Shown one piece after another: positions 12,783 to 35,092 of a stretch of DNA of 64,000 nt; the stretch's first letter is position 1; the number at the start of each line of letters is the position of its first letter. Made by a program: the position numbers and the translations under genes. This DNA comes from Pseudomonadota bacterium (GTDB lineage: Bacteria > Pseudomonadota > Alphaproteobacteria > Kiloniellales > Kiloniellaceae), in NCBI GenBank assembly GCA_039028695.1, contig JBCCHN010000005.1, positions 5,444-69,443 on the forward strand. The letters are read 5' to 3'. The notes under the pieces were generated by a model, which saw nothing but the letters and a program-made list of their open reading frames with translations, ran no database searches and was not told where the DNA came from.

Positions 12783-14090
12783 TCACCCGGTGGCGGTGAC
12801 GATATCCGTTAGATTGGCCTTGGCGGTTTTGGCTTTGGTCAGGTCCACATCCAGTAAGTTGGCCTTGGTTAGGTCCGCGTTTTCCAGATCGGCGCCATCC
12901 AAGATCGCACCGGTCAGGTTGGACGGCCACTGTTTGCCGGTCGGGGCACCATCCGCGTCTTTGATATCGACCGGCCCCAAGCTTACACCGCTCAGATTGG
13001 CGTGGGACAAATCTGCTCCAGCCAGACGCGCGCCCGACAGGTTAGCGCCGTTCAATTGGCAACCGCGCATACGGGCATCGGACAAATCGGCCATGGCCAT
13101 GTCCACCTCATAAAGACGCGTCTCAACAAAGCTGACACCCTTCAACGAGGCACCGCTCAAATTAACCTGGCTGAGATTTTTGCCATCCAAATTCATGCCG
13201 TCCAAAACGGCCCGCTTGCCCTTGCGGCCACTTGTGATGGCCCAGGTCTCGTGGTTGGTGATCATGTCTTGAAGGTCGGGCGGGAGGGACGCAATGGACA
13301 TATCGCTGGAAACCATGCCCAAATTCGCCTTGGAAAAATCGACGCCGTCAGTAATGGCACCGGACAGGTCCGTATTGTCAAAGTTCGCGTTATCGACCTT
13401 GGCATTGCTCAGGTCCGCATTGCGCAAATCCGCATTGGCGAAATCGGCGCCGCTCAGGTCCGCATCGGCCAAAAGGGCCTTGGGCAGCTTGGCATTTCCC
13501 AGCTTGGCTCCCGACAGGTTGCAGCCCTGCATCTTTGCGCCGCTAAAATCTGCCCCCTGCAGCGAGGCGCCGGCCATGTTGACGCCGGAAAAATTGCCTC
13601 TTTTTGCATCCAGGTTGTCCATTTCCACATCACGGAGATCGACCGCTTCAAAGGTGCGGAACTCTCCATTGTCGAGCATTGCCCCACCCCGCAGGTCGGC
13701 GCCTTCCAACTTGGCGTCGCGGAGTTTGACATTTTTCATCTCTGCGCCGCGCAAATCTGCGCCTGAGAGATTAGATCCGGACAGGTCCGCAGCACTAAGA
13801 TCGGCTGAAAAAAGGTCGGTTTCGGAAAGGTCGGCGCCATTTAACTGGCTGGATTTCAGATTGACACCCGACATTTTGGCCTTGCACAGGTTGACACCTT
13901 CCAAGACCAGGCCGCGCGCATCTAAGTCCCGCAAATTGGCGCGAACGCCCCCGCTGCGCCCCAGCAACCATCGCTCGTGGCTCGCGATCGCGTTGAGTAT
14001 TTCCATTGGTGTCAAGGCGGTCCCCGATCCAAAAACGTCGTTCTTAAGCCACATTGGCTGAGCGAATTCGCAACTCGTCGATATTCGCAA
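12783..14090 (-). CDS. pentapeptide-repeat protein, two repeat modules
   Basis: 435 aa dominated by A(D/N)LSG-type pentapeptides (ADLSGADFANADLRNADLSNAKVDNANF...). Two modules, each preceded by a similar motif (IASHERWLLGRSGGVRANL and ITNHETWAITSGRKGKRAVL). Confidence 0.9.
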   Translation of the reverse strand: MRISTSCEFAQPMWLKNDVFGSGTALTPMEILNAIASHERWLLGRSGGVRANLRDLDARGLVLEGVNLCKAKMSGVNLKSSQLNGADLSETDLFSADLSAADLSGSNLSGADLRGAEMKNVKLRDAKLEGADLRGGAMLDNGEFRTFEAVDLRDVEMDNLDAKRGNFSGVNMAGASLQGADFSGAKMQGCNLSGAKLGNAKLPKALLADADLSGADFANADLRNADLSNAKVDNANFDNTDLSGAITDGVDFSKANLGMVSSDMSIASLPPDLQDMITNHETWAITSGRKGKRAVLDGMNLDGKNLSQVNLSGASLKGVSFVETRLYEVDMAMADLSDARMRGCQLNGANLSGARLAGADLSHANLSGVSLGPVDIKDADGAPTGKQWPSNLTGAILDGADLENADLTKANLLDVDLTKAKTAKANLTDIVTATG

Positions 14091-14382: not shown

Positions 14383-15687
14383 CTAACCGCCGTCCCTTAA
14401 GATGGTGCCCGTCGCTCTCTTGGATTTAATTTTGGCAAGGTCGCTTTCGGTCGTGATAAAAACCTCGAAAGTCTCGTTCTGCTCTAATGAAAGGCCATCC
14501 AACAAGGGAACCTTAAGCGTGGTTTCGGTTTGCCCCGGGCGAAGGGTCACCGTGCCGACGGCTTCCTTGTAGTGCGTGCCGGCCTTGGCCGTCCCATCAA
14601 AGGTCGCATAGATAACAAGCACCTCAAAGTCGGACGGCGCCGATAGCTCCACCTTAAAGACCACGTCGGCCTCGCCAGCCGTTGCCTTGCCTTCTAAAAT
14701 GCTCAGCACGGGAAGATCTTGAGACACTGTGGTTTGAACGGCCGCAGGCACCGCGGCAACCTCTTGGTTGCCGACATCCTCGGATGGCTCACCTTTGGTG
14801 GCGACTACCGTCTCTTCAAATTCGCCGTCCCCATTCCCATTTCCGGTGTCGGAAAGGCCCGCAATCTCGGATTCTTCTTCGACTGCCACAGCACTCTTAT
14901 CGATTTGACTTGCTTCTTTCAGATCTTCAGCCTCTGGCGAAGCGACTTGATCTGACATTAGCTGATCTTCTGTCGAGGACGCCTCACCCTGAACCAGCGT
15001 GTCTGCGTCGGCGGCGGCATCAGCCCCAGCACTTTCCACAGCTGTGGCTGTTTCTTCTTGCCCTGCGAGGTCCTGAGCGCCATTGCCTTCGGCCTGCGTA
15101 TCCACCTGCGCAGCAACGTCTTTATCGCTCTGTGCCTGCGATACACCTTGGTCCTGGATCCCCGCTATTCCGGTGATCTGCACCTCGTCCGTTGGACCGC
15201 CTGCAAATTGTTTCTCAGCAATCACACGACCATCTTGAACGCTGAGCACTATATTTGCTTGACGTACCTCGTATAAACCGCCCCGCCAAGATTCCAAACT
15301 TCCGCTGATCGTTCGACCATCAGCAAGCGAGATCTGCACCGCGTCGATTTCGGTACGGGACAATTGCCGCACACCGCCGACCGTCCCTCGCAACATAATG
15401 GTATTGCGGGTCGAGTGGATAATTTCACCTTCAATACGCTGGCCGTTTTCCAAAACAAAAACCGCCGCCTCGCCGTCGGACGGCAGGGTCAACATCAACA
15501 GCCCCGCCAAGCCAGCGGACGCCAAAAGCCGCACGCCAGCTTGCTTTTGCCCAGCTCTCTTTTGCAAAGCGGTATTCCTCCCCAAAGAACAATTGGCAGC
15601 CACTGGATGGACCTTCGGCATTTTTCGGCTGTGGGTCACGGCACTATCCTTTCCAGCGGCGCCAATGGTTGAGTCGAGCCCCGTCAC
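14383..15687 (-). CDS. membrane-anchored/secreted protein with acidic linker and C-terminal Calx-beta domain
   Basis: Hydrophobic segment GVRLLASAGLAGLLMLTL, a D/E/Q-rich low-complexity middle, and a Calx-beta-like C-terminus (VVFKVELSAPSDFEVLVIYATFDGTAKAGTHYKEAVGTVTLRPGQTETTLKVPLLDG). Start uncertain: GTG 15687 or ATG 15621. Confidence 0.7.
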   Translation of the reverse strand: MTGLDSTIGAAGKDSAVTHSRKMPKVHPVAANCSLGRNTALQKRAGQKQAGVRLLASAGLAGLLMLTLPSDGEAAVFVLENGQRIEGEIIHSTRNTIMLRGTVGGVRQLSRTEIDAVQISLADGRTISGSLESWRGGLYEVRQANIVLSVQDGRVIAEKQFAGGPTDEVQITGIAGIQDQGVSQAQSDKDVAAQVDTQAEGNGAQDLAGQEETATAVESAGADAAADADTLVQGEASSTEDQLMSDQVASPEAEDLKEASQIDKSAVAVEEESEIAGLSDTGNGNGDGEFEETVVATKGEPSEDVGNQEVAAVPAAVQTTVSQDLPVLSILEGKATAGEADVVFKVELSAPSDFEVLVIYATFDGTAKAGTHYKEAVGTVTLRPGQTETTLKVPLLDGLSLEQNETFEVFITTESDLAKIKSKRATGTILRDGG

Positions 15688-16833: not shown

Positions 16834-18324
16834 TTACTCGGCCGCCGGCTGATCACTTTCACCAGCGGCTGCGTTCAAAGCTTCGATACGCTTTGCGGTG
16901 TCACTTAACTTCTCTCGCAGCTCGGCAATATCCGCGTTGGATTTTTCAGCCGCCGCGGCAAAAAGATTCTCGATCCAAACCGCCGTGGCATTCCCCAAGT
17001 TCTGAAAATCGGATTGAAGTTCGCCGATACTCGTATTGGCATCGGTCAGACCAACCTTTAAATGTTGGATCTGTTGTTTCGCCGCCACCAACGCCTGTTC
17101 CTTTTCGGCGACGCCCGTGACCGCCTGGGTCAAACGATCCACCTCGCCTTGAGAAATAATCAGCATCTTGGCGATTTTTTCCGATTCTCCTTTGAGGGAT
17201 GCTAAATCCTGGCTGAGCTGGGCCTTATCCGCCTCCGCCGCTGTCAAGGCCCCTCTTAATTTCTCATTGTCACCCTGAGCCACTGACAGATGTTTGTTCA
17301 ATCGTGTCAGATCCTCTTGGGCAGCCGCAGCCGTTTCTCTGTGGCCGACAATTTCGGCCTGCAACACAGCGATTTGCTCCAGGTCCTGCTGCGTTTTCGA
17401 TAACGTCTCCGTCAGGCGCTGTTGCTCGGCTTGGGCTTGCTCCAGATCCTGTTTCAAGGTGTTGGATTCGGCAGACGACGCCTTCAAAATTTGGATCATC
17501 GCCTGCTTTTCAGCTTCCGACTCAGACAGTCCCTGTTTGGCCGTGTCCAGGTCCGCTTCCAGTTGGCTTTGAGCTTGCAAAGCATCACTCAACCTGGATT
17601 GGCTCTGTGTCAACTGGTTTTCCGAATCCGTAATCCGGCGACTGAGGTTTTGCACCTCGGTCTCGGCGGCGGAAAGAGCCTCAGACTGCGCTGTGGTCTT
17701 TTCCAGTTCCCCGGTCAAGGTCGCGATCTGGCTTTGAGCCTCTGCCAACTCGGCATTTTTACTGTCCAAACCCGATTGTAGGGTCTTCGACTCCTGTCGT
17801 GCCGCAGACAAGTCATTTTTCAGTCCGTTTGCCACTCCTTCTGAGAGGGCCAATTTTTCCTTCTGACTGGATACCTGTTGGCGTGCGGTAGTCAGCTGTT
17901 CACCGAGGCGTGCCCGTTCGATGGAGCTCGCATCCAGCAGCTTTTTTTGCTCCGCCAACTGAGCCTCGGCTTCGGCCTTTGCCAACTCGGCTTTCTCCAG
18001 CGCCGCGGTGAGCTGATCAAGCTCGTCGAGAACCGTCGTCATCATTTGCCGTAAGCTGGAGCCGCCCGATGCATCAGCGGCCATCGCGTCGCTGGCCGTC
18101 GACTCCTCGCCGGCCGCCAAAAGCACTCTCGGCCCATGGTCTCGACTATCCGTAAGCCGCCATGTCGCGCCCGACAGAGTTGTTGCAACCGGTTGGAATT
18201 TCGCCGGTAAAAATAGGTCTGAAGTATAAGGTTTAGGAACGGCCTCGGCATTGTGTCCCAGGACGAGTCCTGTTCCCAAGATGGCCGAGCCCAACAGGAT
18301 CGATTTGAACGGCAAGTACTTCAT
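16834..18324 (-). CDS. secreted long coiled-coil protein
   Basis: Signal peptide MKYLPFKSILLGSAILGTGLVLGHNAEA, followed by about 400 aa of Q/E/L/A-rich heptad-like sequence. No enzymatic motif. Start taken at the ATG at 18324. Confidence 0.7.
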   Translation of the reverse strand: MKYLPFKSILLGSAILGTGLVLGHNAEAVPKPYTSDLFLPAKFQPVATTLSGATWRLTDSRDHGPRVLLAAGEESTASDAMAADASGGSSLRQMMTTVLDELDQLTAALEKAELAKAEAEAQLAEQKKLLDASSIERARLGEQLTTARQQVSSQKEKLALSEGVANGLKNDLSAARQESKTLQSGLDSKNAELAEAQSQIATLTGELEKTTAQSEALSAAETEVQNLSRRITDSENQLTQSQSRLSDALQAQSQLEADLDTAKQGLSESEAEKQAMIQILKASSAESNTLKQDLEQAQAEQQRLTETLSKTQQDLEQIAVLQAEIVGHRETAAAAQEDLTRLNKHLSVAQGDNEKLRGALTAAEADKAQLSQDLASLKGESEKIAKMLIISQGEVDRLTQAVTGVAEKEQALVAAKQQIQHLKVGLTDANTSIGELQSDFQNLGNATAVWIENLFAAAAEKSNADIAELREKLSDTAKRIEALNAAAGESDQPAAE

Positions 18325-18582
18325 GTAGCGCCCCCAAGTTAGTCGGGCGAAGTCTACGATTTCGAACATGCCGCGACAACTCGCGGAACCGTAGAAAGAT
18401 GTGGATAACTTTGTGTATTTTTCATCGAACCTCTTCCTATGACGCGGCTTTCGGCGTCATCGCCGCGATCGCCGCGTTGTGGCAACTTGTTCTCTTCCTT
18501 ACAGCAGGGTGCGCTTTTATAAAATTGTGGCTTTTGTTACAAATACGTAACGACCCGCTGTTCATTTACGCGGGCAAGGCTC

Positions 18583-20811
18583 TTACGCGGATTTTGCTTT
18601 ATGATCATGAAACACATGCTCTTCCAGCCCGACTGCCTCCCCATCTGTATGATCGATCAACAAAGGCAGAAAAAGCGCAACCTCGGCGCCCTGCTCCGGG
18701 CGGCTGCTCAATCTCAGCACGCCGCCAGACTGAATTGCGAATCCATAGGCCATGCTTAGGCCGAGGCCGCTACCCTCACCCACATTCTTGGTGGTGAAAA
18801 AAGGCTCAGTCGCGTGTTCGAGAACACGGTCGTCCATTCCCATTCCCGTATCCGAGACAGCGATAACCGCATAGTCCCCCATGGACAAACCAAATTGAGA
18901 GGCTCTGCTTCGCTCACTCAGATTTAAAGTCGAGACAGATACCTTTAGCTGACCACCCTCGGGCATGGCTTGCTTGGCATTTAGGGCGAGGGTCAGCAAG
19001 ACTTCGCCCAATTGGGTCAAATCCACCCGCACCCAGCAGGGTTCATCGCAGACCTGGTAGCTCAGGTGAATTGCCTCACCCAGAAGTGGCTTAAGAGACT
19101 GAAATATTTCATAGGTATGGTGATTAACTTCGATCTCAGCTGCATCGGGCTTGCGCCGCCGGGAAAAGATCATCAGACGTTCGGTCAAAATAGCCCCCCG
19201 ATTGGCAGCTCGTCGAATGGCACTCAATGATCTGCCTAAGGGTTCAGGCAGCTTTCCGGCACGCTCTTCAAGAATCTCGGTATGGCCCAGAATGACTGCC
19301 AATAAATTATTGAAATCGTGGGCCACGCCACCGGTCAATTGTCCGATGGCTTCCATCTTTTGGGCATAACGAAGCTTTTCGTTCAACGCTTCTCGTTCGG
19401 TTATGTCCTCAATCATCAGCAGCCCTAGTGATGCCTTCCAATCCTTGTCTTTAATCACACTCGCCGTGATATGGGCACTGAACAACGACCTATCGTTTCT
19501 GATAAGCCGCGTTTCGAACTGGGAAATCGTCTCGTCATCGGCGGCGATTTTATCCGATAGTTCGGCAAACTGCGCGACATCATCAGCACTCAAGATATCG
19601 GACAGGGAAAGGCCCGCCATTTCCCGCGCCCCATAGCCAAGAACTTCACAGGCCCGGTTGTTAGCCATTAAAAAACGAAGGTCGGGTCCCAGGATCGTCA
19701 TGCCCAAGGAACCGTGTTCGAACACTCGGCGAAACTTTTCTTCGCTGGCACGCAGGGCATTTTCAGCAGATTTTCGGTGTGCTACGTCGATGCGGATAGA
19801 TTCCGCCATCAAATCGAATGATTTGCCTAAATCGCGCAGCTCGCGAGGGGTTATTGCCGACATTTTCTCAACCCGAGACGACAAATCACCGGTCGCCATC
19901 TTGAGTGCTGCGGCCCGAACAGCGAGAACCGGCCGAGTCAAATACCCGGATAGAACCCACCCCAAAATCGCGGCGACAAAAAAACCGATCGCAATTGTAT
20001 TGAAAATAAAACGATCGACCGATTCGGCCCGGGCGACCAATTCTTCCATGGGCTGAGGAATCAAGACACCCCATCCGGTCGCTGGCACAGGCGCATGGGC
20101 GCTGATCATCTCTTCTTGCAGCGCCGGCGAATAGAAATTGGTTACACCATTCCTGCGCTGGGCAATCTGCCGCACGGGCTCCAAGGCCGATAAATCACGT
20201 ACCTCTTGATGCCATGCCTTTACCGGGTGGGCCAGAACCTTGCCGTTCCGGTCCACGATAGTGGCATGCCCCCTCTCGCCAAAAGACACATCTTCGGCCA
20301 CCTTCAAGAAGTAACCTGTTCCGATGGTTGCCACCACGAGCTTGCCGCTGGCAAATCGGCTGAGCAAGATCTCCGGACCATCTTTTCCCAACCTAACCGG
20401 AGAGAAGCCGCTTCGGTCGTTTCCTGCTTCCTTTATATAGAGCGCAATTTCTTCAATAGAGAGAGATGACGGACAAGCCGATTTTGTTCCGGCAAAAAAT
20501 TCCGTAACCGCACCCGTCTTTGGGTCGACGACACAAATGCTCTTGAAATCTAAGTTGCTGGCGAATGGCTCCAAGCCCCCAATCTGATTCCCGGCGATTG
20601 CGTTATCGGTCATCAGCGCAAAAATCGCCGTCACATCCTCGGCATAGTGAGTAAGCGAGCTGGCAATGCCTTTTGCCAACAATAAGTTTCTTTCTGCTAC
20701 GATTTCGATTTCGTTCTGCAGCGCTTTGGACCCTGGCCAGAGCCCGAACAACGCGATGGGAACAGCCGTAACCAGAAAAAAAGATGCAAATAGTAGGAAT
20801 CTGATTCTCAT
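18583..20811 (-). CDS. sensor histidine kinase (TM, Cache-like periplasmic domain, TM, HAMP, PAS, HisKA, HATPase)
   Basis: 742 aa. Two TM segments bracket about 260 aa. H-box GGVAHDFNNLL. G-boxes SDTGMGM and GSGLGLSM. Confidence 0.9.
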   Translation of the reverse strand: MRIRFLLFASFFLVTAVPIALFGLWPGSKALQNEIEIVAERNLLLAKGIASSLTHYAEDVTAIFALMTDNAIAGNQIGGLEPFASNLDFKSICVVDPKTGAVTEFFAGTKSACPSSLSIEEIALYIKEAGNDRSGFSPVRLGKDGPEILLSRFASGKLVVATIGTGYFLKVAEDVSFGERGHATIVDRNGKVLAHPVKAWHQEVRDLSALEPVRQIAQRRNGVTNFYSPALQEEMISAHAPVPATGWGVLIPQPMEELVARAESVDRFIFNTIAIGFFVAAILGWVLSGYLTRPVLAVRAAALKMATGDLSSRVEKMSAITPRELRDLGKSFDLMAESIRIDVAHRKSAENALRASEEKFRRVFEHGSLGMTILGPDLRFLMANNRACEVLGYGAREMAGLSLSDILSADDVAQFAELSDKIAADDETISQFETRLIRNDRSLFSAHITASVIKDKDWKASLGLLMIEDITEREALNEKLRYAQKMEAIGQLTGGVAHDFNNLLAVILGHTEILEERAGKLPEPLGRSLSAIRRAANRGAILTERLMIFSRRRKPDAAEIEVNHHTYEIFQSLKPLLGEAIHLSYQVCDEPCWVRVDLTQLGEVLLTLALNAKQAMPEGGQLKVSVSTLNLSERSRASQFGLSMGDYAVIAVSDTGMGMDDRVLEHATEPFFTTKNVGEGSGLGLSMAYGFAIQSGGVLRLSSRPEQGAEVALFLPLLIDHTDGEAVGLEEHVFHDHKAKSA

Positions 20812-21102
20812 GGGTTTCGATCGGCACTGATAACAGCTGGCAAATCCTGAGCCCTTTCGGCAAATCTGGGACGAATCACCACCCCGACGCCATTAACAAA
20901 TCTCTAAGAATGAAGATCTTGCCCCGTTTCGTCGGAATTTCGCGCCTATCAGGCGTGGACAAGGTAACCAAATTTAAGAGTTAGGAAAAGGGATGGATAC
21001 ATTTTTCAATTCTAAAGCGACCGTTAACCTCGGGACAGTAAAGTGGCCGGATCTATACGGAGATGGTCGAAAACTTACACCGGGTCATGGAGTTGGTTGG
21101 TC

Positions 21103-22656
21103 ATGGAATTGGGCGAAATCCTCCTTAACAAGAAGTTAGCAAGCAAGGACGATATCGAAAAAGCGCTTGAGCTACAGCGCTCCAGCGGCGGTCGACTTGG
21201 CGATGCCCTGATCGCTTTGCAAGTCATTACCGAAGAACAACTCGCCGGAATCCTAAACGAGCCCCCCAAGGCCCCTCGAAATGTAGATGAGACCGGCATC
21301 CCATCCGGAGAAATCCGGAATTTGCTCCTTAAAATCATGAGCAACCTGGAATTGCAGACGCCGTCTAGAATGGCGGAGGTGATCAAGCTTCCCAATCCCA
21401 TGGTACAGGTCCTGCTGGAAGAGTGCGTCGCCCTCAAGATGATCGAGGTCTTGGGCACCACAGGCGATGGCAACATGATTTCCGAACTGCGGTACAGCTT
21501 GACCGCGCTGGGCAAGGAACGAGCCAACGAGGCCATGGAGCAAAACCTCTATGTGGGACCGGCTCCAGTGAACTTGGAATCCTATGCCTATCAAATCAGG
21601 GCCCAAAAAATTACCAACGAACGGGTCAATCGGGCTCAGGTGCAAACGGCTTTCAATGGGCTGGTGATCGCGGATCAGTTTATCGAGAACATCGGACCGG
21701 CCATCAACTCGGGCCGCAGCATCTTGCTCTACGGGCCTCCGGGTAACGGTAAAACCACCGTGGCCGAGGCCATCGCCGCGATTTTTTGTAATGTGGTCTA
21801 TATACCCTATTGCGTGCAAATTGACGGTCAAATCATCAAGATCTTCGATCCTTCCATTCACGTTGAGATCAAGCAGGAATCCAAAGCTGAAGGCGTTTCG
21901 ATCCGCCGAGATCACGTTGACCGCCGCTGGGTTCCTTGCCAGCGTCCCGTAGTGATTACCGGCGGTGAGCTTACCCTGGAGATGCTGGATTTGAAGTACA
22001 ACCCCACGGCACGCTTCTATGAGGCACCCCTGCACATCAAGGCGCTGGGTGGCACCTTCATCATCGACGACTTTGGACGCCAATTGGTAAGCCCGGAAGA
22101 GCTCTTGAACCGATGGATCGTCCCCCTTCAAAGCCGTGTGGACTTTCTCAAGCTGCATACGGGAAAGAGCTTTGAAATCCCCTTTGACGAATTGATCATT
22201 TTTTCCACGAATATGGAGCCGAACGATTTGATGGATCCCGCCTTTCTTCGGCGAATACCCTATAAGCTGGAAACCGTCGGGCCGGATTCGGAGCAATTCA
22301 GCGAAATTTTCCGCGCGGTCGGAGAAAAGGCCGGGCTGAACGTGGATCAAAAGAGCATTGATTTGGTTGTTGAAGCCTTGTCCTCGCGCGGGAATGGCGA
22401 CCTGGCCTGTTATCAGCCAGGCTTTATCATCGACCAGATCCTTTGTGCTTGTAAGTACGAGCATATTCCCCCGGTTATCCGGGATGACCTGATTAATCGC
22501 GCCATTGGTAACCTCTTTGCCGAACCCACAACAAAGTGGGATCGGGCCGGCGTCAAATCTCAACAAGCGGAAATCGCCAATGCACTGGACTGCGACCTCA
22601 ATGACGAGGCGGAAAGCGAATTCCCGGAAGCTCCCCGCTCCGCCCATGCAAGCTAG
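21103..22656 (+). CDS. MshEN/T2SSE_N-like N-terminal domain fused to a single classical AAA+ ATPase module
   Basis: N-terminus ELGEILLNKKLASKDDIEKALELQ-RSSGG-RLGDALIALQVITEEQLAGILNEP gives two 24-residue MshEN-type motifs separated by a 5-residue spacer. Walker A LLYGPPGNGKTT, Walker B FIIDDFG, sensor-1 IIFSTN, Arg pair FLRRIPYKL. Start at ATG 21103 is preferred; the ORF-track GTG at 21043 is the alternative. Confidence 0.85.
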   Translation: MELGEILLNKKLASKDDIEKALELQRSSGGRLGDALIALQVITEEQLAGILNEPPKAPRNVDETGIPSGEIRNLLLKIMSNLELQTPSRMAEVIKLPNPMVQVLLEECVALKMIEVLGTTGDGNMISELRYSLTALGKERANEAMEQNLYVGPAPVNLESYAYQIRAQKITNERVNRAQVQTAFNGLVIADQFIENIGPAINSGRSILLYGPPGNGKTTVAEAIAAIFCNVVYIPYCVQIDGQIIKIFDPSIHVEIKQESKAEGVSIRRDHVDRRWVPCQRPVVITGGELTLEMLDLKYNPTARFYEAPLHIKALGGTFIIDDFGRQLVSPEELLNRWIVPLQSRVDFLKLHTGKSFEIPFDELIIFSTNMEPNDLMDPAFLRRIPYKLETVGPDSEQFSEIFRAVGEKAGLNVDQKSIDLVVEALSSRGNGDLACYQPGFIIDQILCACKYEHIPPVIRDDLINRAIGNLFAEPTTKWDRAGVKSQQAEIANALDCDLNDEAESEFPEAPRSAHAS

Positions 22657-23003
22657 CCAATATACCGGGCCAACGAATTTGGCAGTTTGACAGACAAGCA
22701 AAAAGCTCTGCCACCTATGGAGGTATTTTCCAATAAAGTGGAGGGCGATTATTTGGTTGGCCGACTGTCAAGGGTCGGCTCGTGATCAAGCCATAAAGAT
22801 CCAGCCCACCAAAACAGCGAAAACCGTAAACCCAAGAATTGAAGCGTCGAAAACTTCCACCCTTCGCCTCCGTAAGAGATGCGCTTAGCCCGCATCGCGT
22901 CGCATACGCAACGCTCTTTAAACAAACACCAAATTTCGATGTCGGTTCCCGATAGGCTAGAAAGCTTATCTTTAAGGAGTCGTTAAGGTCTGCTGGACAT
23001 CCC

Positions 23004-23387
23004 TTAATGTCTAAGGGAAATCTCTTCCAGCAGCTCTTCGATCGCCGCCCTAAGGGCCAAAAAATCGATAGGTTTTGTCAAGTATCTGGTTGGGCGCAGA
23101 TCCTCGACCGCATTGATATCCCGAACATCATCCAGAGCGGTCAGGAAAATAAAGGGTGTTTCGTTGAATTGGGGAAATTTTTCCCGCAAAAGAGTTAACA
23201 TCTCATAGCCAGACAACCGCGGCATCTTCCGGTCGCAAATCACCAGGGCTGGCTTCCGCTCGACGATTTGCGTCAAGCCATCGGCACCGTCGCACGCTTC
23301 AAGAGCCCCGTATCCCCAAAGAGCAATGAATTCCTTGAGCATAACCCTAAAATCGGGCTCGTCATCAATACATAGAATTTCCAACAC
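23004..23387 (-). CDS. single-domain CheY-like response regulator
   Basis: 127 aa. Acidic pocket IDDEPD, phospho-acceptor context LVICDRKMP, conserved LTKP lysine. No output domain. Confidence 0.9.
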   Translation of the reverse strand: MLEILCIDDEPDFRVMLKEFIALWGYGALEACDGADGLTQIVERKPALVICDRKMPRLSGYEMLTLLREKFPQFNETPFIFLTALDDVRDINAVEDLRPTRYLTKPIDFLALRAAIEELLEEISLRH

Positions 23388-23780
23388 TCTGGCCCATCCT
23401 CACTGTCATTCACCTAGCCATCACCTAACCTTTTTAAGGTAGTGCCATCGATGGCCGAGACATTTTACTGGTCCGAAGAGCAAATCCTTCTTCTGGAACC
23501 GGTTACCTTAAAAGGAACCGGGAAAAAATTGGTTAAGCATCTGGTCTGGTTTGATGAACCGATACGGGCTTTTTCAATCAATCGAAAAATTCGGATCTAT
23601 TGGGTAAAGGCGTAATGGATGCGGCGGCTGCATCGAACGGCCGATTGCTCCAATTTCCTCACCTGAAACAATTTTTCCCAAATTCCTGTACCAAGCCAGG
23701 CAAGCTGGTGATAAGCTTGGTAAATCGTCGGATCGATCAAGAATAACAACTCACCATAACGACCACAGGGAGACTGCCAA

Positions 23781-25373
23781 ATGAGCGAATTTGACGACCT
23801 CAAAAAAGGATTATTGTCTGGCGCCATCAAACGGCGCGAGTTTTTGACACGGACCTCCGCGCTGGGTTTGGCCGCAGCTGCGGCGCCGATACTGGCCCAG
23901 CAAGCCCAGGCCATGACGCCGAATAAAGGGGGCCATTTGCGCCTTGGCACTGCCGAAGGCTCCACCAGTGACGTGTTAGACCCAGCACCGGATTCCAGTG
24001 CCTTCATCACCATGTTGTCCTCCACATACCTGAGCCAGCTCACCGAAGTGGATGCGAACGGCAACCTCCACCCCCTCTTGGCGGAGTCATTCGAGCCCAA
24101 TGAAGGGGCAACGGAATGGACCTTCAAGCTGCGCAAGGGTGTGGAATTCCACGACGGCAAGCCTCTGGTTGCCGAGGATGTGGTGGCGACCCTTAATCAT
24201 CATCGCGGCGAGGATTCCAAATCCTCCCTCAAGGCCTTCGCCAATCAGATCGAGGATATCAAGAGCAGTGGCGACCACGAGGTCAAAATTATTCTGTCCT
24301 CCGGTAATGCCGATTACCCCTTCGTTCTCAGCACCGGCGCCTTTTCCATCCTGCCCAGCAAGGACGGCAAAGTCCAAGCCACAGCAGGTAACGGCACCGG
24401 CCCCTACAGCTTGCAAGAGTTCGATCCCGGCGTCCGGGCCGTGGTTCAAAAGAACCCCAATTACTTCAAGGACGATGTGGGTCACTTCGAATCAGCCGAG
24501 ATCAATATCATCGCCGATGCGGCGGCCCGGCAAAATGCCTTGGTCTCCAACGAGGTTGATTTGATCGACAAGGTTGAGCTCAAGACCGCCCATCTCTTGG
24601 CGCAGAACGAAGCCGTCGAGCTGCTCGATGTGACCGGCACCCTGCACTACACCTTCCCCATGGACACCCGGCAGGCACCGTTTAACGACAACAATGTGCG
24701 CTTGGCGCTAAAGTATGCCATCGACCGCCAGGAAATCGTGGACAAGGTCCTAAAAGGCTATGGAGCGGCCGGTAACGACCATCCCATTTCGCCCGCCAAC
24801 CGCTACTTCAACACGGAACTCGCGCCGCGCAACTATGATCCCGATAAGGCCAAGTTCTACTTGAAGGAAGCAGGCCTTGATACCCTAACGGTCGAGCTCA
24901 GTGCATCCGAGGCGATCTGGAACGGTGCCATTGATGCGGTCGTTCTTTACCGCGAGCAGGCAGCCAAGGCCGGTATCGACATCGTGGCCAATCGGGTGCC
25001 CAACGACGGCTATTGGTCCAATGTGTGGATGAAACACCCTTGGGCGGCCAGCTATTGGAGCGGTCGCCCCACCGAAGACTGGATGTTCTCCCAGGGTTAC
25101 GCCGACGATTCCAGCTGGAACGAAACCTTCTGGAAGAACGACCGCTTCAACATGCTGTTGCGTGAAGCCCGTGCCGAACTGGACGAGACCAAGCGACGGG
25201 ACATGTATTGGGAAATGCAGGAGATTGTCCGCGACGACGGTGGCGCGGTTGTGCCGATCTTCGCCAATCACCTGATGGCTTATCAGAAGTCCAAGCTGAC
25301 CCATCCCGAAAAGGTCGCCGGCAACTGGAACCTGGATGGCTACAAGCTCATCGAACGCTGGTCCATGACCTGA
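23781..25373 (+). CDS. ABC transporter substrate-binding protein, family 5 (peptide/nickel type), Tat signal
   Basis: 530 aa. Twin-arginine signal KRREFLTRTSALGLAAAAAPILAQQAQA. SBP_bac_5-like body. No permease or ATPase genes adjacent. Confidence 0.9.
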   Translation: MSEFDDLKKGLLSGAIKRREFLTRTSALGLAAAAAPILAQQAQAMTPNKGGHLRLGTAEGSTSDVLDPAPDSSAFITMLSSTYLSQLTEVDANGNLHPLLAESFEPNEGATEWTFKLRKGVEFHDGKPLVAEDVVATLNHHRGEDSKSSLKAFANQIEDIKSSGDHEVKIILSSGNADYPFVLSTGAFSILPSKDGKVQATAGNGTGPYSLQEFDPGVRAVVQKNPNYFKDDVGHFESAEINIIADAAARQNALVSNEVDLIDKVELKTAHLLAQNEAVELLDVTGTLHYTFPMDTRQAPFNDNNVRLALKYAIDRQEIVDKVLKGYGAAGNDHPISPANRYFNTELAPRNYDPDKAKFYLKEAGLDTLTVELSASEAIWNGAIDAVVLYREQAAKAGIDIVANRVPNDGYWSNVWMKHPWAASYWSGRPTEDWMFSQGYADDSSWNETFWKNDRFNMLLREARAELDETKRRDMYWEMQEIVRDDGGAVVPIFANHLMAYQKSKLTHPEKVAGNWNLDGYKLIERWSMT

Positions 25374-26688: not shown

Positions 26689-29115
26689 TCAGCGATCCTC
26701 TGATAAGATATCGTTGAAGGCTGCCAGTTCAGCGGCCACCCGGCCATAAATGCTGTCGGGTGGATAGTTGCCGTCCTGATCCGGCTCACCTGCTTTTGTC
26801 CCTAAAAACAACTCCAACGCTTCATCGATGGTCTCCACCGACCAAATGGTGAAGTTACCCTCTTGCGCAGCCTGGGCTACTTCATCGTCAAGCACCAGGT
26901 TCGTTTCATTGGCTCGGGGAATGATCACCCCTTGCGTCCCCGTGAGTCGTCCCTTGTCTCGGCAAGCGCGGAAAAAGCCCTCCACTTTGTGGTGCACCCC
27001 GCCTACGACTTGAGACTGCCCGCGTTGATTGACCGACCCGGTGATGGCCAAGTCTTGGCGTGCCGGCAAACCGGAAATGTCGGAGAGGATGGCCACCAAC
27101 TCGGCCAGCGACGCGCTGTCGCCCTCAACGCCGCCATAACTCTGTTCAAAGGTGATTGAGCAATTAAAGGACAAAGGATGGCGGCGAGCAAAGTGCCCCG
27201 CCAAAAATCCCTGCAGCACCATAACGCCCTTTTGCTGGATCGGACCGCCTAAGGCGATATCCCGTTCCACGTTGATGACGCCGCGTCGTCCCACCGAAGC
27301 CCGAGCCGTTACCCGTGACGGTGTGCCAAAAGAGTGGTCCCCAAAGGAGCGCACTGTCAGGGCGTTGATCTGGCCGCGCACGGACCCGGTCACATCAATC
27401 ATTACCATATCGTCTGCGATCTGTTCATAGAGACGGTCTTCGATGCGGGCATTACGGTCGCGCCGCCGGGCGATGGCTTGGACGACCACGGCCTTATAGA
27501 GGGGCGCGGTCGGGTCATCCCCGTCGCCACACTCCCCCATCAGCAACGTCGCCTCTTGCACCGCGTCCTCGACCTGCTCGAACTGGGCGGTCAAGCGGGT
27601 CCGATCCCCCGCCCAGCGGGACGCCAGACCCAAAATGTAATCCACCGTCTCCGCGGTGCAGCGACGGCCGCAGTTGCGGGCTGCGATCTCCTGTACCAGA
27701 TCGCGATAGCAGGCCAGGTTGGACTCATCGGCCGGCATATCCGTGTCCACATCGGCCTTGATGCGAAAATAGTGATGAAAGTCCGGGTCCACGGAAAAGA
27801 AGGTGTAGTACCAGCGTGGGGCACCCACCAAGACAACCTTTACATCTAGGGGTACCGGCAAAGGCTGAGGAGCACCGGCGATGGGAACGCCCCCCCGTCG
27901 ACTGAGTTGCCCAACCACCACCTGGCGATCCCTCAAGGCGGCTTTCAGGCCCAGCCAAATGGCTGGATCGGCCGCAAGGGTTTCCGCGCGCAATACCAAA
28001 ATTCCCCCGTTGGCTCGATGAAGGGCACCGGCACGAATAAGAGTGAAGTCGGTTTCCAACACACCACCGGCCTGTCGGTATTCCATGTCCCCGAAAAGGC
28101 TGCCGGCCGTGGGATTGGCTTCCAGAACCACCTCCGGATGCGCCGCATCTCCATTATCGATCAATAGGTTGACCCCATAACGCTGTGCCAAAAGGCTTTC
28201 CGCCGCACCCGTCATTCCTCCCTGTCCATCGGCAGAAGAGGGCGCCGCCGCTTCGCCCATGAAGAGCCTCACGTTCGCCAAAATGTCCTCGCGCAAACTT
28301 TCGATCCAAGCGGCCAAATCGCTCTGCCCCTCAAAAGCCTCGGCGAGGGAATCCAACAGCCCCCCAATGGCTCGGTCGGCAACGGCTCGGTTTAGGTCAC
28401 GCAGGGCCTCGGCCAAGTCCATTTGCCGTTCTCCGGCCATGCGATTGATAGCGCGAAGACGCTTGTTGATTTCCTGAAGGGCCGTCTCCACGGCTTCTTT
28501 TTGAGCTTCCGCAATCTCCGCCGGATTGATGGGATTGCCGTCGGGCCCGACGGGCGTCACCGTGATGCCACCCGCGGTTTGGACGAGATCCAATCCCTTA
28601 CTCTTTGCATCTTTTCGTAGCGCATCGATCTCTGCGCCGACCTGGCTTTGTGCATCCTGCTGAGCAGCCTGGACCTGAGCCTCATAATCACCGGCGGTAA
28701 AGGCACCGGAAAGGGCTTCACGGAGACGGGGAAGCAGGTTGGCCATGCGAGTGCGCAGGTTGCGCCCCATGCCCGCCGGCAGACCATAGGCCCGAGGCCG
28801 ATGGGGCTCGGCAAAGTTATTGAGATAGACCCAATCGTCAGGAACCGGGCGGTCGGCCATGGCTTTTTCCAGATAGGAAAGCGTGGCCGTCATACGGCCG
28901 CTTCGGTCCTCGCCCAAAACGAAAATGTTAAAGCCAGGCGCACCCACCGATAGTCCAAAGGCCAAAGCCTCCCGTGCGCGGGCGTGGCTGGACAGGGTAA
29001 AGACCTCGGCCCCGCCGTCGGACGGCTCTTGCGGATGCGAAGCCGCTGAGGCCTCGTCCGAACCAGTAAATTGGGGCAATCCGACCCGATCGGCAGATAT
29101 CTTCTTGGCTGGCAT
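26689..29115 (-). CDS. Lon-like protease (AAA_32-type degenerate ATPase region, long helical insertion, Lon_C Ser-Lys protease domain)
   Basis: C-terminal Lon proteolytic domain YGGVEGDSASLAELVAILS...GGVHHKVEGFFRACR. The P-loop position reads GEDRSGRMT, not GxxxxGK[ST]. Start at ATG 29115 (GAGAGG 4 nt upstream) preferred over the ORF-track TTG at 29202. Confidence 0.85.
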   Translation of the reverse strand: MPAKKISADRVGLPQFTGSDEASAASHPQEPSDGGAEVFTLSSHARAREALAFGLSVGAPGFNIFVLGEDRSGRMTATLSYLEKAMADRPVPDDWVYLNNFAEPHRPRAYGLPAGMGRNLRTRMANLLPRLREALSGAFTAGDYEAQVQAAQQDAQSQVGAEIDALRKDAKSKGLDLVQTAGGITVTPVGPDGNPINPAEIAEAQKEAVETALQEINKRLRAINRMAGERQMDLAEALRDLNRAVADRAIGGLLDSLAEAFEGQSDLAAWIESLREDILANVRLFMGEAAAPSSADGQGGMTGAAESLLAQRYGVNLLIDNGDAAHPEVVLEANPTAGSLFGDMEYRQAGGVLETDFTLIRAGALHRANGGILVLRAETLAADPAIWLGLKAALRDRQVVVGQLSRRGGVPIAGAPQPLPVPLDVKVVLVGAPRWYYTFFSVDPDFHHYFRIKADVDTDMPADESNLACYRDLVQEIAARNCGRRCTAETVDYILGLASRWAGDRTRLTAQFEQVEDAVQEATLLMGECGDGDDPTAPLYKAVVVQAIARRRDRNARIEDRLYEQIADDMVMIDVTGSVRGQINALTVRSFGDHSFGTPSRVTARASVGRRGVINVERDIALGGPIQQKGVMVLQGFLAGHFARRHPLSFNCSITFEQSYGGVEGDSASLAELVAILSDISGLPARQDLAITGSVNQRGQSQVVGGVHHKVEGFFRACRDKGRLTGTQGVIIPRANETNLVLDDEVAQAAQEGNFTIWSVETIDEALELFLGTKAGEPDQDGNYPPDSIYGRVAAELAAFNDILSEDR

Positions 29116-29422
29116 GGAACCTCTCATGCTTGGATTGGTCTGCGGGCTTCGCAAAAGCCCTCGGCGGTCACCATCCTGCCAGGGATTCTCGCAAGCTGCC
29201 AAGGCCGTGGGCGCACAATCACGTATTTTTGCCTAACAATTGCCCGAAAGGCGGAACGGCGCCGGGCGATAAACACTTTGTAACCCGGCTGTCATCTCGT
29301 CTTTAGGTGATGTCCTGAATTATGGGCCACCGGCCTTCCCGAATGGCATCCGGTCCCACTGGGCCCGCCGTCGAAGGCCAATGATTTTTGGACCTATTCT
29401 TTTTCGTTGAGGAACCCAAGGA

Positions 29423-30448
29423 ATGAGCGACAACGTCACCGAGTTTGTGCCGCCGAAGGAAAAGCCAGACAACGCCCTCCCCGACCAGGACCTGATCCGC
29501 GAGGATTTTGCCGACCTCAGACGCCATCTCAAGGGTCGGATCGTCGGGCAGGAAAAACTTGTTGATCGACTAATTCTGGCTCTTCTGGCCGACGGTCATC
29601 TCTTGGTCGAAGGAGCGCCCGGCTTGGCCAAAACCAAGGCGATCAAGGAGCTCTCCCGGGCCATCGACGGCGAAGATCATCGCATTCAATTCACGCCCGA
29701 CCTCTTGCCCGCCGACCTGACGGGTACGGATATCTACCGGCCCGAAACGGGCACTTTCACCTTCCAGCCCGGCCCTGTTTTTCACAACCTAGTCCTCGCC
29801 GACGAGATCAATCGGGCACCGGCCAAGGTTCAGTCCGCCCTTCTTGAAGCCATGGCCGAGCGCCAGGTCACCGTCGGCCGCGAGACCTACCGTCTGCCCA
29901 AGCTATTCATGGTCATGGCAACCCAAAACCCCCTTGAGCAGGAGGGCACCTACCCCTTACCGGAAGCCCAGCTCGATCGATTTCTCATGCATCTGCGTAT
30001 CGGCTATCCGGATAGTGAGGCCGAGCACAAGATCCTTAAGTTGGTCCGGGGCGAAGCACGGGGCGAGATCGCGGCACCCGATAAGGTTCTGCCACAGGCC
30101 AGGATTTTCGCGGCCCGCGACCTGGCTCTAAAGACCTATATGGCGCCTGCCTTGGAGACCTACCTGGTGCAGCTGGTTATCGCGACCCGCCAACCCGAAG
30201 CGTACGGTGATGAGCTGAACGGCCTGATCCGCTGTGGGGCCAGCCCACGGGGCTCTATCTCCCTAGACCGAGCCGCGCGCGCCCATGCATGGTTGCGCGG
30301 GGCTGATTTCGTCGCCCCTGAGGATTTGCAAGCGGTGGTGAAGGATGTTCTGCGCCACCGGGTACTCTTGACCTTTGAAGCCGAGGCCGACGGCATGACC
30401 ACAGATGGGGTTCTGGATTTGCTCATAAATCGAGTACCCCTCACCTAA
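29423..30448 (+). CDS. MoxR-family AAA+ ATPase (AAA_3)
   Basis: 341 aa. Walker A LVEGAPGLAKTK, Walker B/MoxR signature LVLADEINRAPAKVQSALLEAMAERQVT. GAGGAA RBS. Confidence 0.92.
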   Translation: MSDNVTEFVPPKEKPDNALPDQDLIREDFADLRRHLKGRIVGQEKLVDRLILALLADGHLLVEGAPGLAKTKAIKELSRAIDGEDHRIQFTPDLLPADLTGTDIYRPETGTFTFQPGPVFHNLVLADEINRAPAKVQSALLEAMAERQVTVGRETYRLPKLFMVMATQNPLEQEGTYPLPEAQLDRFLMHLRIGYPDSEAEHKILKLVRGEARGEIAAPDKVLPQARIFAARDLALKTYMAPALETYLVQLVIATRQPEAYGDELNGLIRCGASPRGSISLDRAARAHAWLRGADFVAPEDLQAVVKDVLRHRVLLTFEAEADGMTTDGVLDLLINRVPLT

Positions 30449-30478
30449 CCTTTTAAATTCCTCACCTGATCGATATCC

Positions 30479-31456: not shown

Positions 31457-31971
31457 TGGAAAACTCCACAATCGATCGTGGCCTCACTCAACTGAGGGAC
31501 ATTCATTTGCCCGACCCGGTTCTTATTTGGCCCCCAGCTATGGGCTGGTGGATTCTCGCCGCCATCATTATGGCATTGGTAGTTGCCCTGTGGCTCGGCA
31601 TTTTCATTCGGCGCCGCGGTCTAGCCCATCATGCTCTCAAGGAGCTCTCCCATCTGGAAAAAGATCGGAGCGGCCACGGCGACCTTCAATCCTTCGCCAC
31701 GGCCGTTTCGGGCTTGCTGCGCCGGGTGGCCCTGGCCCGCTATGGGCGCAGTCGAGTCGCCAGCCTCACTGACCGGGATTGGCTGCAATTCCTCAGCCAA
31801 AGCGGCCGCACTCAACGATCGAGCCATAGTTGGAACGGCGACGCGGGCCGCCTTTTGGCCATCGCCCCCTATGCGCCACCGGGCGCCCTGGAAATCAAAC
31901 AGCTTGGTTTTAACGTTACCCGCCAATCCCTGGCGGAAGCGGCACGGGGTTGGATCAGGAAAAACACATGA
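31453..31971 (+). CDS. DUF4381 membrane protein
   Basis: LRDIHLPDPVLIWPPAMGWWILAAIIMALVVALWLGIF shows the typical DUF4381 single TM near the N-terminus. Its start overlaps the DUF58 stop (GTGATG). Confidence 0.75.
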   Translation: MMENSTIDRGLTQLRDIHLPDPVLIWPPAMGWWILAAIIMALVVALWLGIFIRRRGLAHHALKELSHLEKDRSGHGDLQSFATAVSGLLRRVALARYGRSRVASLTDRDWLQFLSQSGRTQRSSHSWNGDAGRLLAIAPYAPPGALEIKQLGFNVTRQSLAEAARGWIRKNT

Positions 31972-32984: not shown

Positions 32985-32988
32985 TGCC

Positions 32989-35079: not shown

Positions 35080-35092
35080 AAAGAGATCCCCC

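Follow-up and report, generated by a model that had tools for sequence, protein, structure and literature searches.

An MshEN_N-type sensor module on a winged-helix AAA+ ATPase of an alphaproteobacterium, with sensor-less relatives in Tad/Flp pilus loci

The gene and its domain architecture

The stretch analysed in this work (the window, 64,000 nucleotides of contig JBCCHN010000005.1 from a bacterium of the Kiloniellaceae) contains on its forward strand, at positions 21103-22656, an open reading frame (ORF) encoding a protein of 517 amino acids (aa) plus the stop codon. The protein joins a known type of sensor, the MshEN_N half of the cyclic di-GMP (c-di-GMP) receptor module MshEN, to a winged helix and an AAA+ ATPase that belong to an output family for which no earlier description was found. 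The features of the gene are given below with their positions in the window, the strand and the evidence for each; the structural ones refer to an AlphaFold (AF2) model.

21089..21092, + strand: GGAG Shine-Dalgarno-like site, 10 nucleotides (nt) 5′ of the ATG at 21103 (sequence inspection)
21103..22656, + strand: complete ORF, with MshEN_N module, winged helix, AAA+ ATPase and C-terminal tail (homologues, AF2 model)
21106..21177, + strand: MshEN motif 1, residues 2-25, ELGEILLNKKLASKDDIEKALELQ (NF053729, PDB and family-profile alignments)
21178..21192, + strand: five-residue spacer RSSGG, residues 26-30 (family alignment)
21193..21264, + strand: MshEN motif 2, residues 31-54, RLGDALIALQVITEEQLAGILNEP (NF053729, PDB and family-profile alignments)
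21280..21546, + strand: MarR-like winged helix, residues ~60-148 (AF2 secondary structure, domain profile)
21565..22278, + strand: AAA+ alpha/beta core, residues ~155-392 (Pfam, PDB profile, AF2, fold search)
21733..21756, + strand: Walker A GPPGNGKT, residues 211-218, with G211, G214, G216 and K217 invariant (alignments)
21808..22053, + strand: conserved structured insert of ~80 residues that follows beta2 and precedes the Walker B strand, residues 236-317 (alignments, AF2 model)
22054..22083, + strand: atypical Walker B TFIIDDFGRQ, residues 318-327 (119-sequence alignment)
22138..22182, + strand: predicted pre-sensor-1 beta-hairpin, residues 346-360 (DSSP on the model)
22204..22212, + strand: sensor-1 STN, residues 368-370, with N370 99-100% conserved (alignment)
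22249..22254, + strand: Arg pair R383-R384 in LMDPAFLRRI, putative arginine fingers (alignment)
22288..22518, + strand: helical lid domain, residues 396-472 (alignment, AF2 model)
22519..22653, + strand: non-conserved, low-confidence C-terminal tail, residues 473-517 (alignment, AF2 model)

The ORF listing gives as an alternative start a GTG at 21043, upstream in the same frame, which also ends at 22656 (+). The start at ATG 21103 is supported by the GGAG at 10-nt spacing and by the homologues, all of which begin with M-x-[LI]-G in the alignment. A protein identical to that of the window (P0001) was found by protein search in a Pseudomonadota metagenome-assembled genome. A first AF2 model, built from 53 close homologues, had a predicted local distance difference test score (pLDDT) of 73, left the ATPase insert unmodelled and gave uninformative fold matches. 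The model used throughout was obtained from an alignment of 119 sequences that included distant relatives (pLDDT 92.8; predicted template modelling score, pTM, 0.87).

Judged from the alignments, the likeness of the N-terminal motifs to MshEN is far beyond chance. The NCBIfam model NF053729 (c-di-GMP_motif; 'cyclic di-GMP-binding domain, MshE-related') matched residues 3-53 with an E-value (E) of 3.8e-15 and a score of 55.4 bits, 17 bits above the curated cutoff of 38, which was passed by 53 of the 53 close homologues as well. Comparison of the single sequence with the PDB gave matches to the GSPII domain of PilF (6e-6) and to residues 9-61 of MshE (5htl, 1e-4), and a profile of the 53 homologues gave MshE residues 9-62 at 1.7e-9 and PilF at 6e-18, the MshE alignment being in register and equal to the 53-residue ligand-binding stretch of that protein. 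The NfrB and EpsG models were also matched, weakly. In the AF2 model the module consists of four helices (residues 2-9, 15-28, 32-38 and 44-51; pLDDT 88-97), and the GG of the RSSGG spacer is conserved in 90-97% of the family. The original prediction, made from the sequence before this analysis, had described two 24-residue motifs separated by RSSGG in the layout of MshEN. This layout was borne out by NF053729 and by the MshE and PilF alignments, and structure prediction of the N-terminus, proposed there as a check, returned the four-helix module. The Pfam model suggested for the same purpose, T2SSE_N (PF05157), did not match the protein even at E<=1, and the MshEN_C/T2SSE_N1 subdomain is absent by Pfam and profile search, so that the claim of an MshEN domain stands for its MshEN_N half only.

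The following region, previously described as a linker of about 150 residues, is occupied in the AF2 model and in profile comparisons by a folded winged helix and by the N-terminal helices of the AAA+ module. The winged helix has the order H-H-H-beta-beta-H (helices 68-82, 87-94 and 98-110, hairpin 114-133, helix 135-147). It is identified as MarR-like from a profile of the middle domain that matched structures of the MarR family and also the archaeal AspA (E from 1.9e-5, the best MarR-family value, to 2e-4); no match to T2SSE_N1/MshEN_C was found among the structures. According to the family alignment, the domain is neutral to acidic, with a median net charge of -1 and a charge of 0 for H3 plus wing, and its wing carries an invariant Arg, R130, within the motif R-Y-x-L-T-x-x-G of the homologue alignment.

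The ATPase module possesses all the features of the AAA+ superfamily: Walker A, an acidic Walker B, N370, the R383/R384 pair and the lid. A structure search with the AF2 model returned 1322 AAA+ fold matches at E<=1e-3. The motifs on which the original prediction had relied (GPPGNGKT; IIDDFG, residues 320-325; STN; FLRRI, residues 381-385) are present and conserved across the family, and the joining of an MshEN-type module to an ATPase other than a secretion motor was also confirmed, as MshEN_N precedes an AAA+ superfamily P-loop ATPase and the T2SSE ATPase domain (PF00437) gave no Pfam match in the protein. The assignment to the classical AAA clade did not hold. In 119 core-family sequences the Walker B has the form hhhhDD-F-G-R-Q, with D322, D323 and G325 invariant and R326/Q327 conserved in >=97%, so that an invariant DD stands in place of DE. 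The insert at residues 236-317, between beta2 and beta3, holds the conserved elements D273-x-R275-W, R281-P282, GGELTLEMLDL and YEAPLH-K-A-x-G, and the predicted pre-sensor-1 hairpin lies between helix 331-344 and the sensor-1 strand. Classical-clade AAA proteins reportedly lack such a hairpin in the AAA+ classification of Iyer et al. 2004. The Pfam AAA model (PF00004) scored 24.5 bits against a gathering threshold of 21.2, yet it covered just the 22 residues around Walker A (207-228). The best fold matches were 8p49 (2e-12) and the LonB ATPase domain (4zpx, 4e-10), followed by RuvB and NorQ/CbbQ, the top matches ranging in E from 2e-12 to 5e-7, with target-normalised template modelling (TM) scores of up to 0.61-0.64 and 12-16% identity. 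These outranked p97 and the proteasomal Rpt subunits, the latter placed lower with TM scores of 0.37-0.46. The Sigma54_activat model matched only at Walker A (residues 192-225, E 0.074), and no GAFTGA motif is present. On the basis of the model and these comparisons, the ATPase is a non-classical AAA+ protein. A Walker B with DD is characteristic of AAA+ proteins that act as slow switches. In the family alignments no aromatic-hydrophobic-Gly pore loop was seen to be conserved, and nothing in the tests made points to the unfolding activity that had been proposed.

Ligand-contact positions of the MshEN_N module

Conservation of the two motifs was counted in 116 family members that bear MshEN_N, and the positions that contact the ligand were the most conserved of the module. 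Gly occupies position 3 of both motifs in 100% of the members (G4 and G33 in the protein of the window). The hydrophobic triads are kept in the family, and all six of their positions are intact in the window copy (L3/I18/L22 and L32/L47/L51). Gln is present at position 24 of motif 1 (M1.24) in 93% of the members (Q25 in the window copy) and Arg at position 1 of motif 2 (M2.1) in 81% (R31). More variable are M1.1 (L 30, R 22, Q 12 and E 9%; Glu in the window copy) and M1.10 (G 51, N 25 and K 14%; K11). Position M2.10 is Gly in 93% and Gln in 2% of the members, the window copy having Gln (Q40), and M2.24 is A in 53%, I in 15%, M in 9% and P in 9%, never Gln, with Pro in the window copy (P54). 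The deviations listed in the original prediction (Glu at position 1, Lys and Gln at position 10) were correct by the family alignment, and a further one lies at position 24 of motif 2, where Pro replaces Gln.

Published measurements on MshE give an indication of the cost of such changes. Binding by MshE is dominated by the amides of Gly-3 and by the Leu triads: no binding was detectable for G11L, G40I caused a 72-fold loss, and Leu-to-Ala changes weakened binding 28-38-fold (Wang 2016). Polar contacts matter less, with an 11.8-fold loss for Q61A (dissociation constant 5.9 uM), a 9-fold loss for Q32A, and changes at R9, D12 and Q32 reported as <5-fold (Wang 2016). The Ala that prevails in the family at M2.24 is the counterpart of the MshE Q61A substitution (Wang 2016). 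In PilF, slight deviations together with an N-terminal helix extension can abolish binding by the GSPII-A domain (Neissner 2025); a blocking extension of this kind is not present in the family studied here, since the motif begins at residue 2. Taken from the aligned residues, low-micromolar binding of c-di-GMP by the family is plausible. Binding by the window copy is doubtful, and clearly less certain than for the family. The subclade to which it belongs has a decaying motif: in the close marine relatives P0014 and P0017, decay has gone further, with P-I-G in place of R-L-G and E at M2.10. The sensor of the window copy, more degenerate than that of most of the family, may bind the ligand weakly or not at all. 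The earlier caution that the motif deviations make ligand binding uncertain is upheld.

The winged-helix AAA+ family and its genomic contexts

The protein search returned at least 8000 homologous clusters at 90% identity, the best 120 of which were inspected. These 120 were full-length matches with 52-78% identity, from Sneathiella, Rhizomicrobium, Dongiaceae, Bauldia, Methylobacteriaceae and Methylomirabilota, and were named just 'AAA family ATPase' or 'hypothetical'. When 1.84 billion representatives at 50% identity were searched with the profile, a core family emerged with 9321 matches at E<=1e-3, of which 1195 reached E<=1e-30. Its members are conserved over profile positions ~54-475, that is, the winged helix plus the AAA+ module, and the N-termini are variable: about one quarter of the best 150 representatives align over positions 1-53, and the others have either short N-termini or extensions of 100-390 residues. 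Pfam identified FHA domains in 4, PAS in 3 and HDOD in 1 of 43 extended members. The occurrence of FHA, PAS, HDOD and MshEN_N at the N-terminus indicates that the winged helix plus AAA+ core is an output module with swappable inputs. The core is covered by no Pfam or NCBIfam model, the sole named relative being IetA, which matched far below its cutoff. No description of the family was found in Pfam, NCBIfam, PADLOC or the searchable literature, in agreement with the original view that the protein belongs to no recognised class. Two relatives had been labelled PadR or MarR regulators by annotators of the Joint Genome Institute (JGI). An apparent T2SSF fusion (P0268) was discarded, since the gene call had taken in the last 61 residues encoded by a neighbouring TadC-like gene.

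Core members without the sensor were found inside Tad/Flp pilus loci of Rhizobium/Ensifer, Salipiger, Burkholderia/Paraburkholderia and two branches of the Desulfobacterota, in the following arrangements:

Desulfobacterota, P0160 clade (L081-L084): secretin, Tad, TadZ-like, T2SSE, T2SSF, T2SSF, then the gene, with overlapping stop and start codons
Desulfobacterota, P0160 clade, other order: gene after tadB-tadC and a tetratricopeptide (TPR) protein of 1430-1458 aa
Desulfobacterota, P0164 (L086): RcpC, secretin, TadZ, TadA, TadB, TadC, TPR, prepilin peptidase, then the gene
Rhizobium etli CFN42 plasmid p42e (RHE_RS25680, WP_011428170.1), Rhizobium WSM4643 and Ensifer adhaerens: gene directly 3′ of cpaF-tadB-tadC, in a complete flp/cpa locus
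Burkholderia pyrrocinia (L2Y90_RS34800) and Paraburkholderia terrae: gene between prepilin peptidase and cpaB
Salipiger: gene convergent with tadC

The two Desulfobacterota proteins P0164 and P0160 share just 38% identity in the core. In cultured bacteria, tblastn identified 76 plasmid or chromid records, 31-42% identical over residues 55-472. The Tad-locus proteins are 35-42% identical to the window protein over this region (best E 1e-109) and share its DDFGRQ, STN and RR motifs, and none of the Tad-linked proteins carries a remnant of MshEN_N. The fact that different gene orders are found in distant lineages argues for a functional coupling of the core family with Tad/Flp pili, which places the MshEN_N module once more on a pilus-associated ATPase family and not on a secretion motor. 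In a rough neighbour-joining tree, built without support values, the Tad-linked members were spread over two or more major clades, and one of these adjoins the MshEN_N clades. Four sampled contigs (L088, L089, L091 and L097) were too short to inform on context. No description of a winged-helix AAA+ protein of Tad loci was found in the searchable literature. A partnership with TadG in the style of MoxR and VWA proteins was dropped, as neither VWA nor any other domain was found among the Tad-locus neighbours that would support it.

Two further gene associations were observed at the loci of sensor-less members. A membrane methyltransferase of the ICMT/PEMT type, of ~205-228 aa and 42-65% identical between loci, adjoins the sensor-less genes in two subfamilies; neither the MshEN_N-type loci nor the window contain it. 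Its positions are:

L082, 8248-8865, - strand
L083 and L084, 7333-8013, - strand
L090, 9410-10096, + strand, with a start codon that overlaps the stop codon of the ATPase gene (translational coupling)

In two alphaproteobacterial plasmid Tad loci (L092, 8013-8576, and L096, 14727-15287), the TadZ-like gene is separated from cpaF by an inserted L,D-transpeptidase gene, which is unusual for a tad operon.

The context of the MshEN_N-type genes was studied at 80 loci (L001-L080) from Alphaproteobacteria, Acidobacteriaceae, Verrucomicrobiota and Gammaproteobacteria, and 81 loci were clustered by neighbour family. The survey of homologous neighbourhoods proposed in the original prediction gave no conserved partner. 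Since no neighbour family recurs and the flanking genes lie mostly on the opposite strand, the MshEN_N-type subfamily appears to consist of stand-alone genes. A single pilus-related gene was observed: an orphan Flp-type pilin (MSQLVEILRKIARDESG/ISSVEYTLILALVAGGIV...; L098, 13363-13551, - strand) that lies downstream of the MshEN_N member P0128, 1.9 kb away, with a PCMT methyltransferase gene and ispA in between. It is the sole case in 82 MshEN_N-type loci. Flp pilins were sought with a generalised G-x4-EY scan, which found none in the window or in L001-L080 and gave 0 matches in reversed-sequence controls; stricter patterns missed alphaproteobacterial pilins.

The gene of the window is monocistronic and lies between a divergent gene for a histidine kinase (18583-20811, - strand; dCache-HAMP-PAS architecture) and a convergent gene for a stand-alone, single-domain receiver of 127 aa (23004-23387, - strand). 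This flanking by kinase and receiver is not conserved at the other loci and is probably coincidental. The farther neighbours encode an ABC substrate-binding protein, a PCuAC protein, a LonC-like protease and a MoxR/Bat operon. A Rfam scan of window positions 20000-24000 detected no riboswitch or other RNA element, and a consensus scan for promoters and terminators gave nothing that exceeded shuffled expectation. No phage matches were found for the gene. The following observations concern other genes and ORFs of the window:

12783-14090, - strand: 435-aa pentapeptide-repeat protein, upstream of the histidine kinase
14383-15687, - strand: Calx-beta domain protein with an acidic low-complexity region, likewise upstream of the histidine kinase
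16834-18369, - strand: 511-aa Ala/Gln/Glu-rich coiled-coil protein, likewise upstream of the histidine kinase
21253-22701, - strand: 482-aa antisense ORF without family matches that covers nearly the entire gene; comparable ORFs occur at 10 homologous loci, and it is read as a shadow ORF of a conserved GC-rich gene
26689-29202, - strand: LonC-like protease (LonC_helical, AAA_32, Lon_C), divergent from the operon at 29423-36994
29423-36994, + strand: MoxR (AAA_3)-DUF58-...-VWA/TPR-BatD operon of the Bat/aerotolerance type
46288-47838, - strand: full-length homologue of the MttB methyltransferase family (PF06253, E 3e-201) without in-frame stop, consistent with the non-pyrrolysine MttB type
57320-58387, - strand: fusion of a receiver and an adenylate/guanylate cyclase, translationally coupled to the gene at 58384-62361
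58384-62361, - strand: hybrid histidine kinase of 1325 aa that contains several PAS domains and two receivers; the pair (57320-62361) belongs to cyclic-mononucleotide and not to c-di-GMP signalling

Proposed function, rival explanations and significance

We favour the explanation, with a probability of roughly one in two, that the protein is a cytoplasmic, signal-controlled AAA+ ATPase made of MshEN_N, a MarR-like winged helix and AAA+, gated by c-di-GMP and with its output on Tad/Flp pili. It builds on elements that are directly established, namely the architecture, the conservation of the ligand contacts, the invariant DD, the swappable inputs and the Tad association of the core family. In the proposed mechanism, the N-module would bind a cyclic dinucleotide, for which c-di-GMP with an affinity in the low-micromolar range is the most likely candidate, and its packing on the winged helix and the ATPase would thereby be altered, the high pTM being suggestive of a defined packing. 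The change in packing would in turn control whether an oligomeric ring, probably a hexamer, assembles or turns over in an ATP-dependent manner. The output, as deduced from the relatives, may be exerted on the assembly or the expression of Tad/Flp (type IVc) pili, either as an accessory of the machine or as a winged-helix regulator. With DD in its Walker B motif, the ATPase is more likely to act as a slow switch than as a processive unfoldase, the latter being the least supported mode. A more specific version, in which the core is an overlooked Tad/Flp accessory or regulator and the stand-alone MshEN_N version is the missing c-di-GMP receptor that would tie the messenger to the assembly, retraction or expression of Tad pili, we hold to be rather doubtful; MshEN_N-type members are found across Alphaproteobacteria and Acidobacteriota.

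Several observations weigh against a c-di-GMP-gated ATPase that acts on pili. On the side of the sensor, the family departs systematically from the MshE motif (Arg at M1.1 in just 22% of the members, Gln never at M2.24), and the window copy has Glu at M1.1 and both of its turn glycines replaced (K11 and Q40). The position-10 glycines have been described as required for the helix turns (Wang 2016). The relaxed pattern of the same work, [RKPN]hGxxhhxx[GAS]hhxxxxhxxxhxx[QNKRYWST], required of each motif, fails in both halves of the window copy, and it was passed in both halves by only 1 of the 116 family members. In the GSPII/MshEN domain family, moreover, sequence alone is not predictive of binding (Neissner 2025). 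The sensor-2 position of the ATPase, residue 440 (nt 22420-22422), is Gly in the window copy, a position with K/R in 75% of the MshEN_N members and Arg in 79% of the other members; this may be taken as another sign that the window copy is atypical. No GGDEF or EAL gene was found in the 64-kb window. On the side of the output, neither tblastn with Tad probes, among them a T2SSE ATPase, nor Pfam on 20 ORFs revealed T2SS (type II secretion), type IV pilus (T4P) or Tad genes in the window, a result that bears out the earlier statement that T2SS and T4P genes are absent. No Tad, T4P or T2SS gene was found within +/-8 kb of the 80 MshEN_N-type loci, and no neighbour family recurred under strict or relaxed clustering, the maximum being 7 of 81 loci, all of them close relatives. 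Three other sampled subfamilies of the core (L085, L087 and L090) are not Tad-linked. Owing to this lack of Tad genes and recurrent neighbours, the link of the MshEN_N subfamily with Tad rests on ~40% identical relatives and would hold by homology only.

The points on the sensor bring up a degenerate module, which would have lost c-di-GMP binding in the window copy, as in XpsE and PilF GSPII-A, and would be structural or serve protein interaction only, with the ATPase regulated otherwise or constitutive. The failure of the relaxed pattern in both halves, the Gln at M2.10 seen in 2% of the members, the turn glycines described as required, the further decay in P0014 and P0017 and the existence of non-binding GSPII domains with small deviations all fit this explanation. 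The residues shown to be most critical are intact, however (both Gly-3, the six triad positions, Q25 and R31), the module scores 17 bits above its cutoff, and the reading is weakened by the cost of just 5- to 12-fold of single polar substitutions in MshE, so that we consider it somewhat unlikely. In a different explanation, the winged helix would bind DNA and the AAA+ module would act as a nucleotide switch, so that the protein would control flp/tad or other surface genes, for instance, in response to c-di-GMP, with a logic like that of FleQ or VpsR but a different architecture. It agrees with the match of the middle domain to DNA-binding MarR-family regulators and AspA, with the invariant wing Arg R130, with the PadR/MarR labels given by JGI, with a DD Walker B of the type generally known from slow switch AAA+ proteins, and with the swapping of N-terminal sensors, typical of regulators. 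The winged helix is nevertheless not basic (median net charge -1), its recognition helix lacks conserved basic or polar residues across the family, and the Tad-embedded members are co-oriented with their neighbours and at times translationally coupled, a placement that fits a machine component at least equally well. A transcription factor is an unlikely solution.

The function put forward originally, a c-di-GMP-gated unfoldase or remodeller of the classical AAA type, which would pass its substrates through the pore of a hexamer, is now improbable. The Walker A region and LMDPAFLRRI do resemble NSF, p97 and Rpt, the Pfam AAA model scores above its gathering threshold, and Rpt subunits are among the fold matches; but that Pfam match is limited to residues 207-228, the Walker B carries the invariant DD, the hairpin is modelled with high confidence beside the 80-residue beta2-beta3 insert, and 8p49, LonB, RuvB and NorQ/CbbQ outscore Rpt. 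A conserved pore loop is not seen, and no protease or substrate-adaptor partner is conserved nearby. Even less credit can be given to an anti-phage defence ATPase of the IetA type, which we regard as very improbable: the matches are weak though consistent (PADLOC 4.7e-11; NCBIfam IteA 1.1e-10, in 53 of 53 homologues), the score of 41.2 bits compares with an equivalog cutoff of 510, and neither an IetS-like protease nor a conserved partner occurs in the window or at the 80 loci. The housekeeping nature of the neighbours, the identity of 52-78% across alphaproteobacterial orders and the lack of phage matches also speak against it.

Compared with known systems, the window protein resembles MshE of V. 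cholerae (5HTL), PilF of T. thermophilus and PilB in its two 24-residue helix-turn-helix motifs with a 5-residue spacer, and in keeping Gly-3, the hydrophobic triads, Gln M1.24 and Arg M2.1 in register. Unlike these proteins, it has the MshEN_N half only, and AAA+ in place of the T2SSE/PilB-type ATPase; with respect to MshE, the family departs at M1.1 (mostly not Arg) and M2.24 (never Gln), and the window copy has lost the turn glycines. The carriage of MshEN_N by a non-secretion output is shared with MshEN_N-only proteins (EpsG, Bd2402, cce_1044; NfrB). In the part of Supplementary Table 4 of Wang 2016 available to us, EpsG appears as MshEN_N-AAA_31, a P-loop of the ParA/BY-kinase type, and no fusion with AAA+, hence none of MshEN_N plus winged helix plus AAA+, is listed there. 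The AAA proteins of Tad loci (RHE_RS25680, L2Y90_RS34800) have the same winged helix plus AAA+ core, but in contrast to the window gene they are sensor-less and located inside tad/cpa operons; they are uncharacterised and unnamed. IetA of the IetAS system is the nearest named family by hidden Markov model, with a match over residues 113-226, which begins late in the winged helix and reaches Walker A, and the window gene differs from it in having neither an IetS protease partner nor a defence-island context. In its logic, an AAA+ protein with a DNA-binding-type domain under the control of c-di-GMP recalls FleQ, VpsR and FlrA, in which c-di-GMP is bound by the AAA+ domain itself (Wang 2016). Unlike these sigma-54 activator-type proteins with a C-terminal helix-turn-helix (HTH), the window protein has a separate N-terminal sensor and its HTH-type domain N-terminal to the ATPase. 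A pre-sensor-1 hairpin AAA+ module like that of the window protein is found in 8p49 (an uncharacterised hexamer of Pyrococcus furiosus, Q8U0N8, for which no paper was found in a literature search), LonB, RuvB and NorQ/CbbQ, which differ from it in lacking MshEN_N; none of them is functionally tied to pili.

To our knowledge, only two receptor modules for c-di-GMP are truly widespread, and MshEN is one of them. The outputs on which it is known are for the most part T2SS/T4P motor ATPases and glycosyltransferases, and the gene described here puts an MshEN-type module on a different output, a large and unnamed family of winged-helix AAA+ proteins. As far as we know, the Tad motor ATPase CpaF/TadA has no MshEN domain, unlike PilB and MshE. 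Tad loci of rhizobia, Burkholderia, the Roseobacter group and Desulfobacterota would hold an overlooked ATPase. If the proposal is true, the MshEN_N version would be a candidate c-di-GMP route to Tad pili, to attachment on surfaces and to the entry into biofilms in bacteria where the Tad motor is sensor-less. Even if the Tad link fails for the MshEN_N subfamily, these proteins would represent a new class of architecture among the putative c-di-GMP effectors of bacteria from soil and sea.

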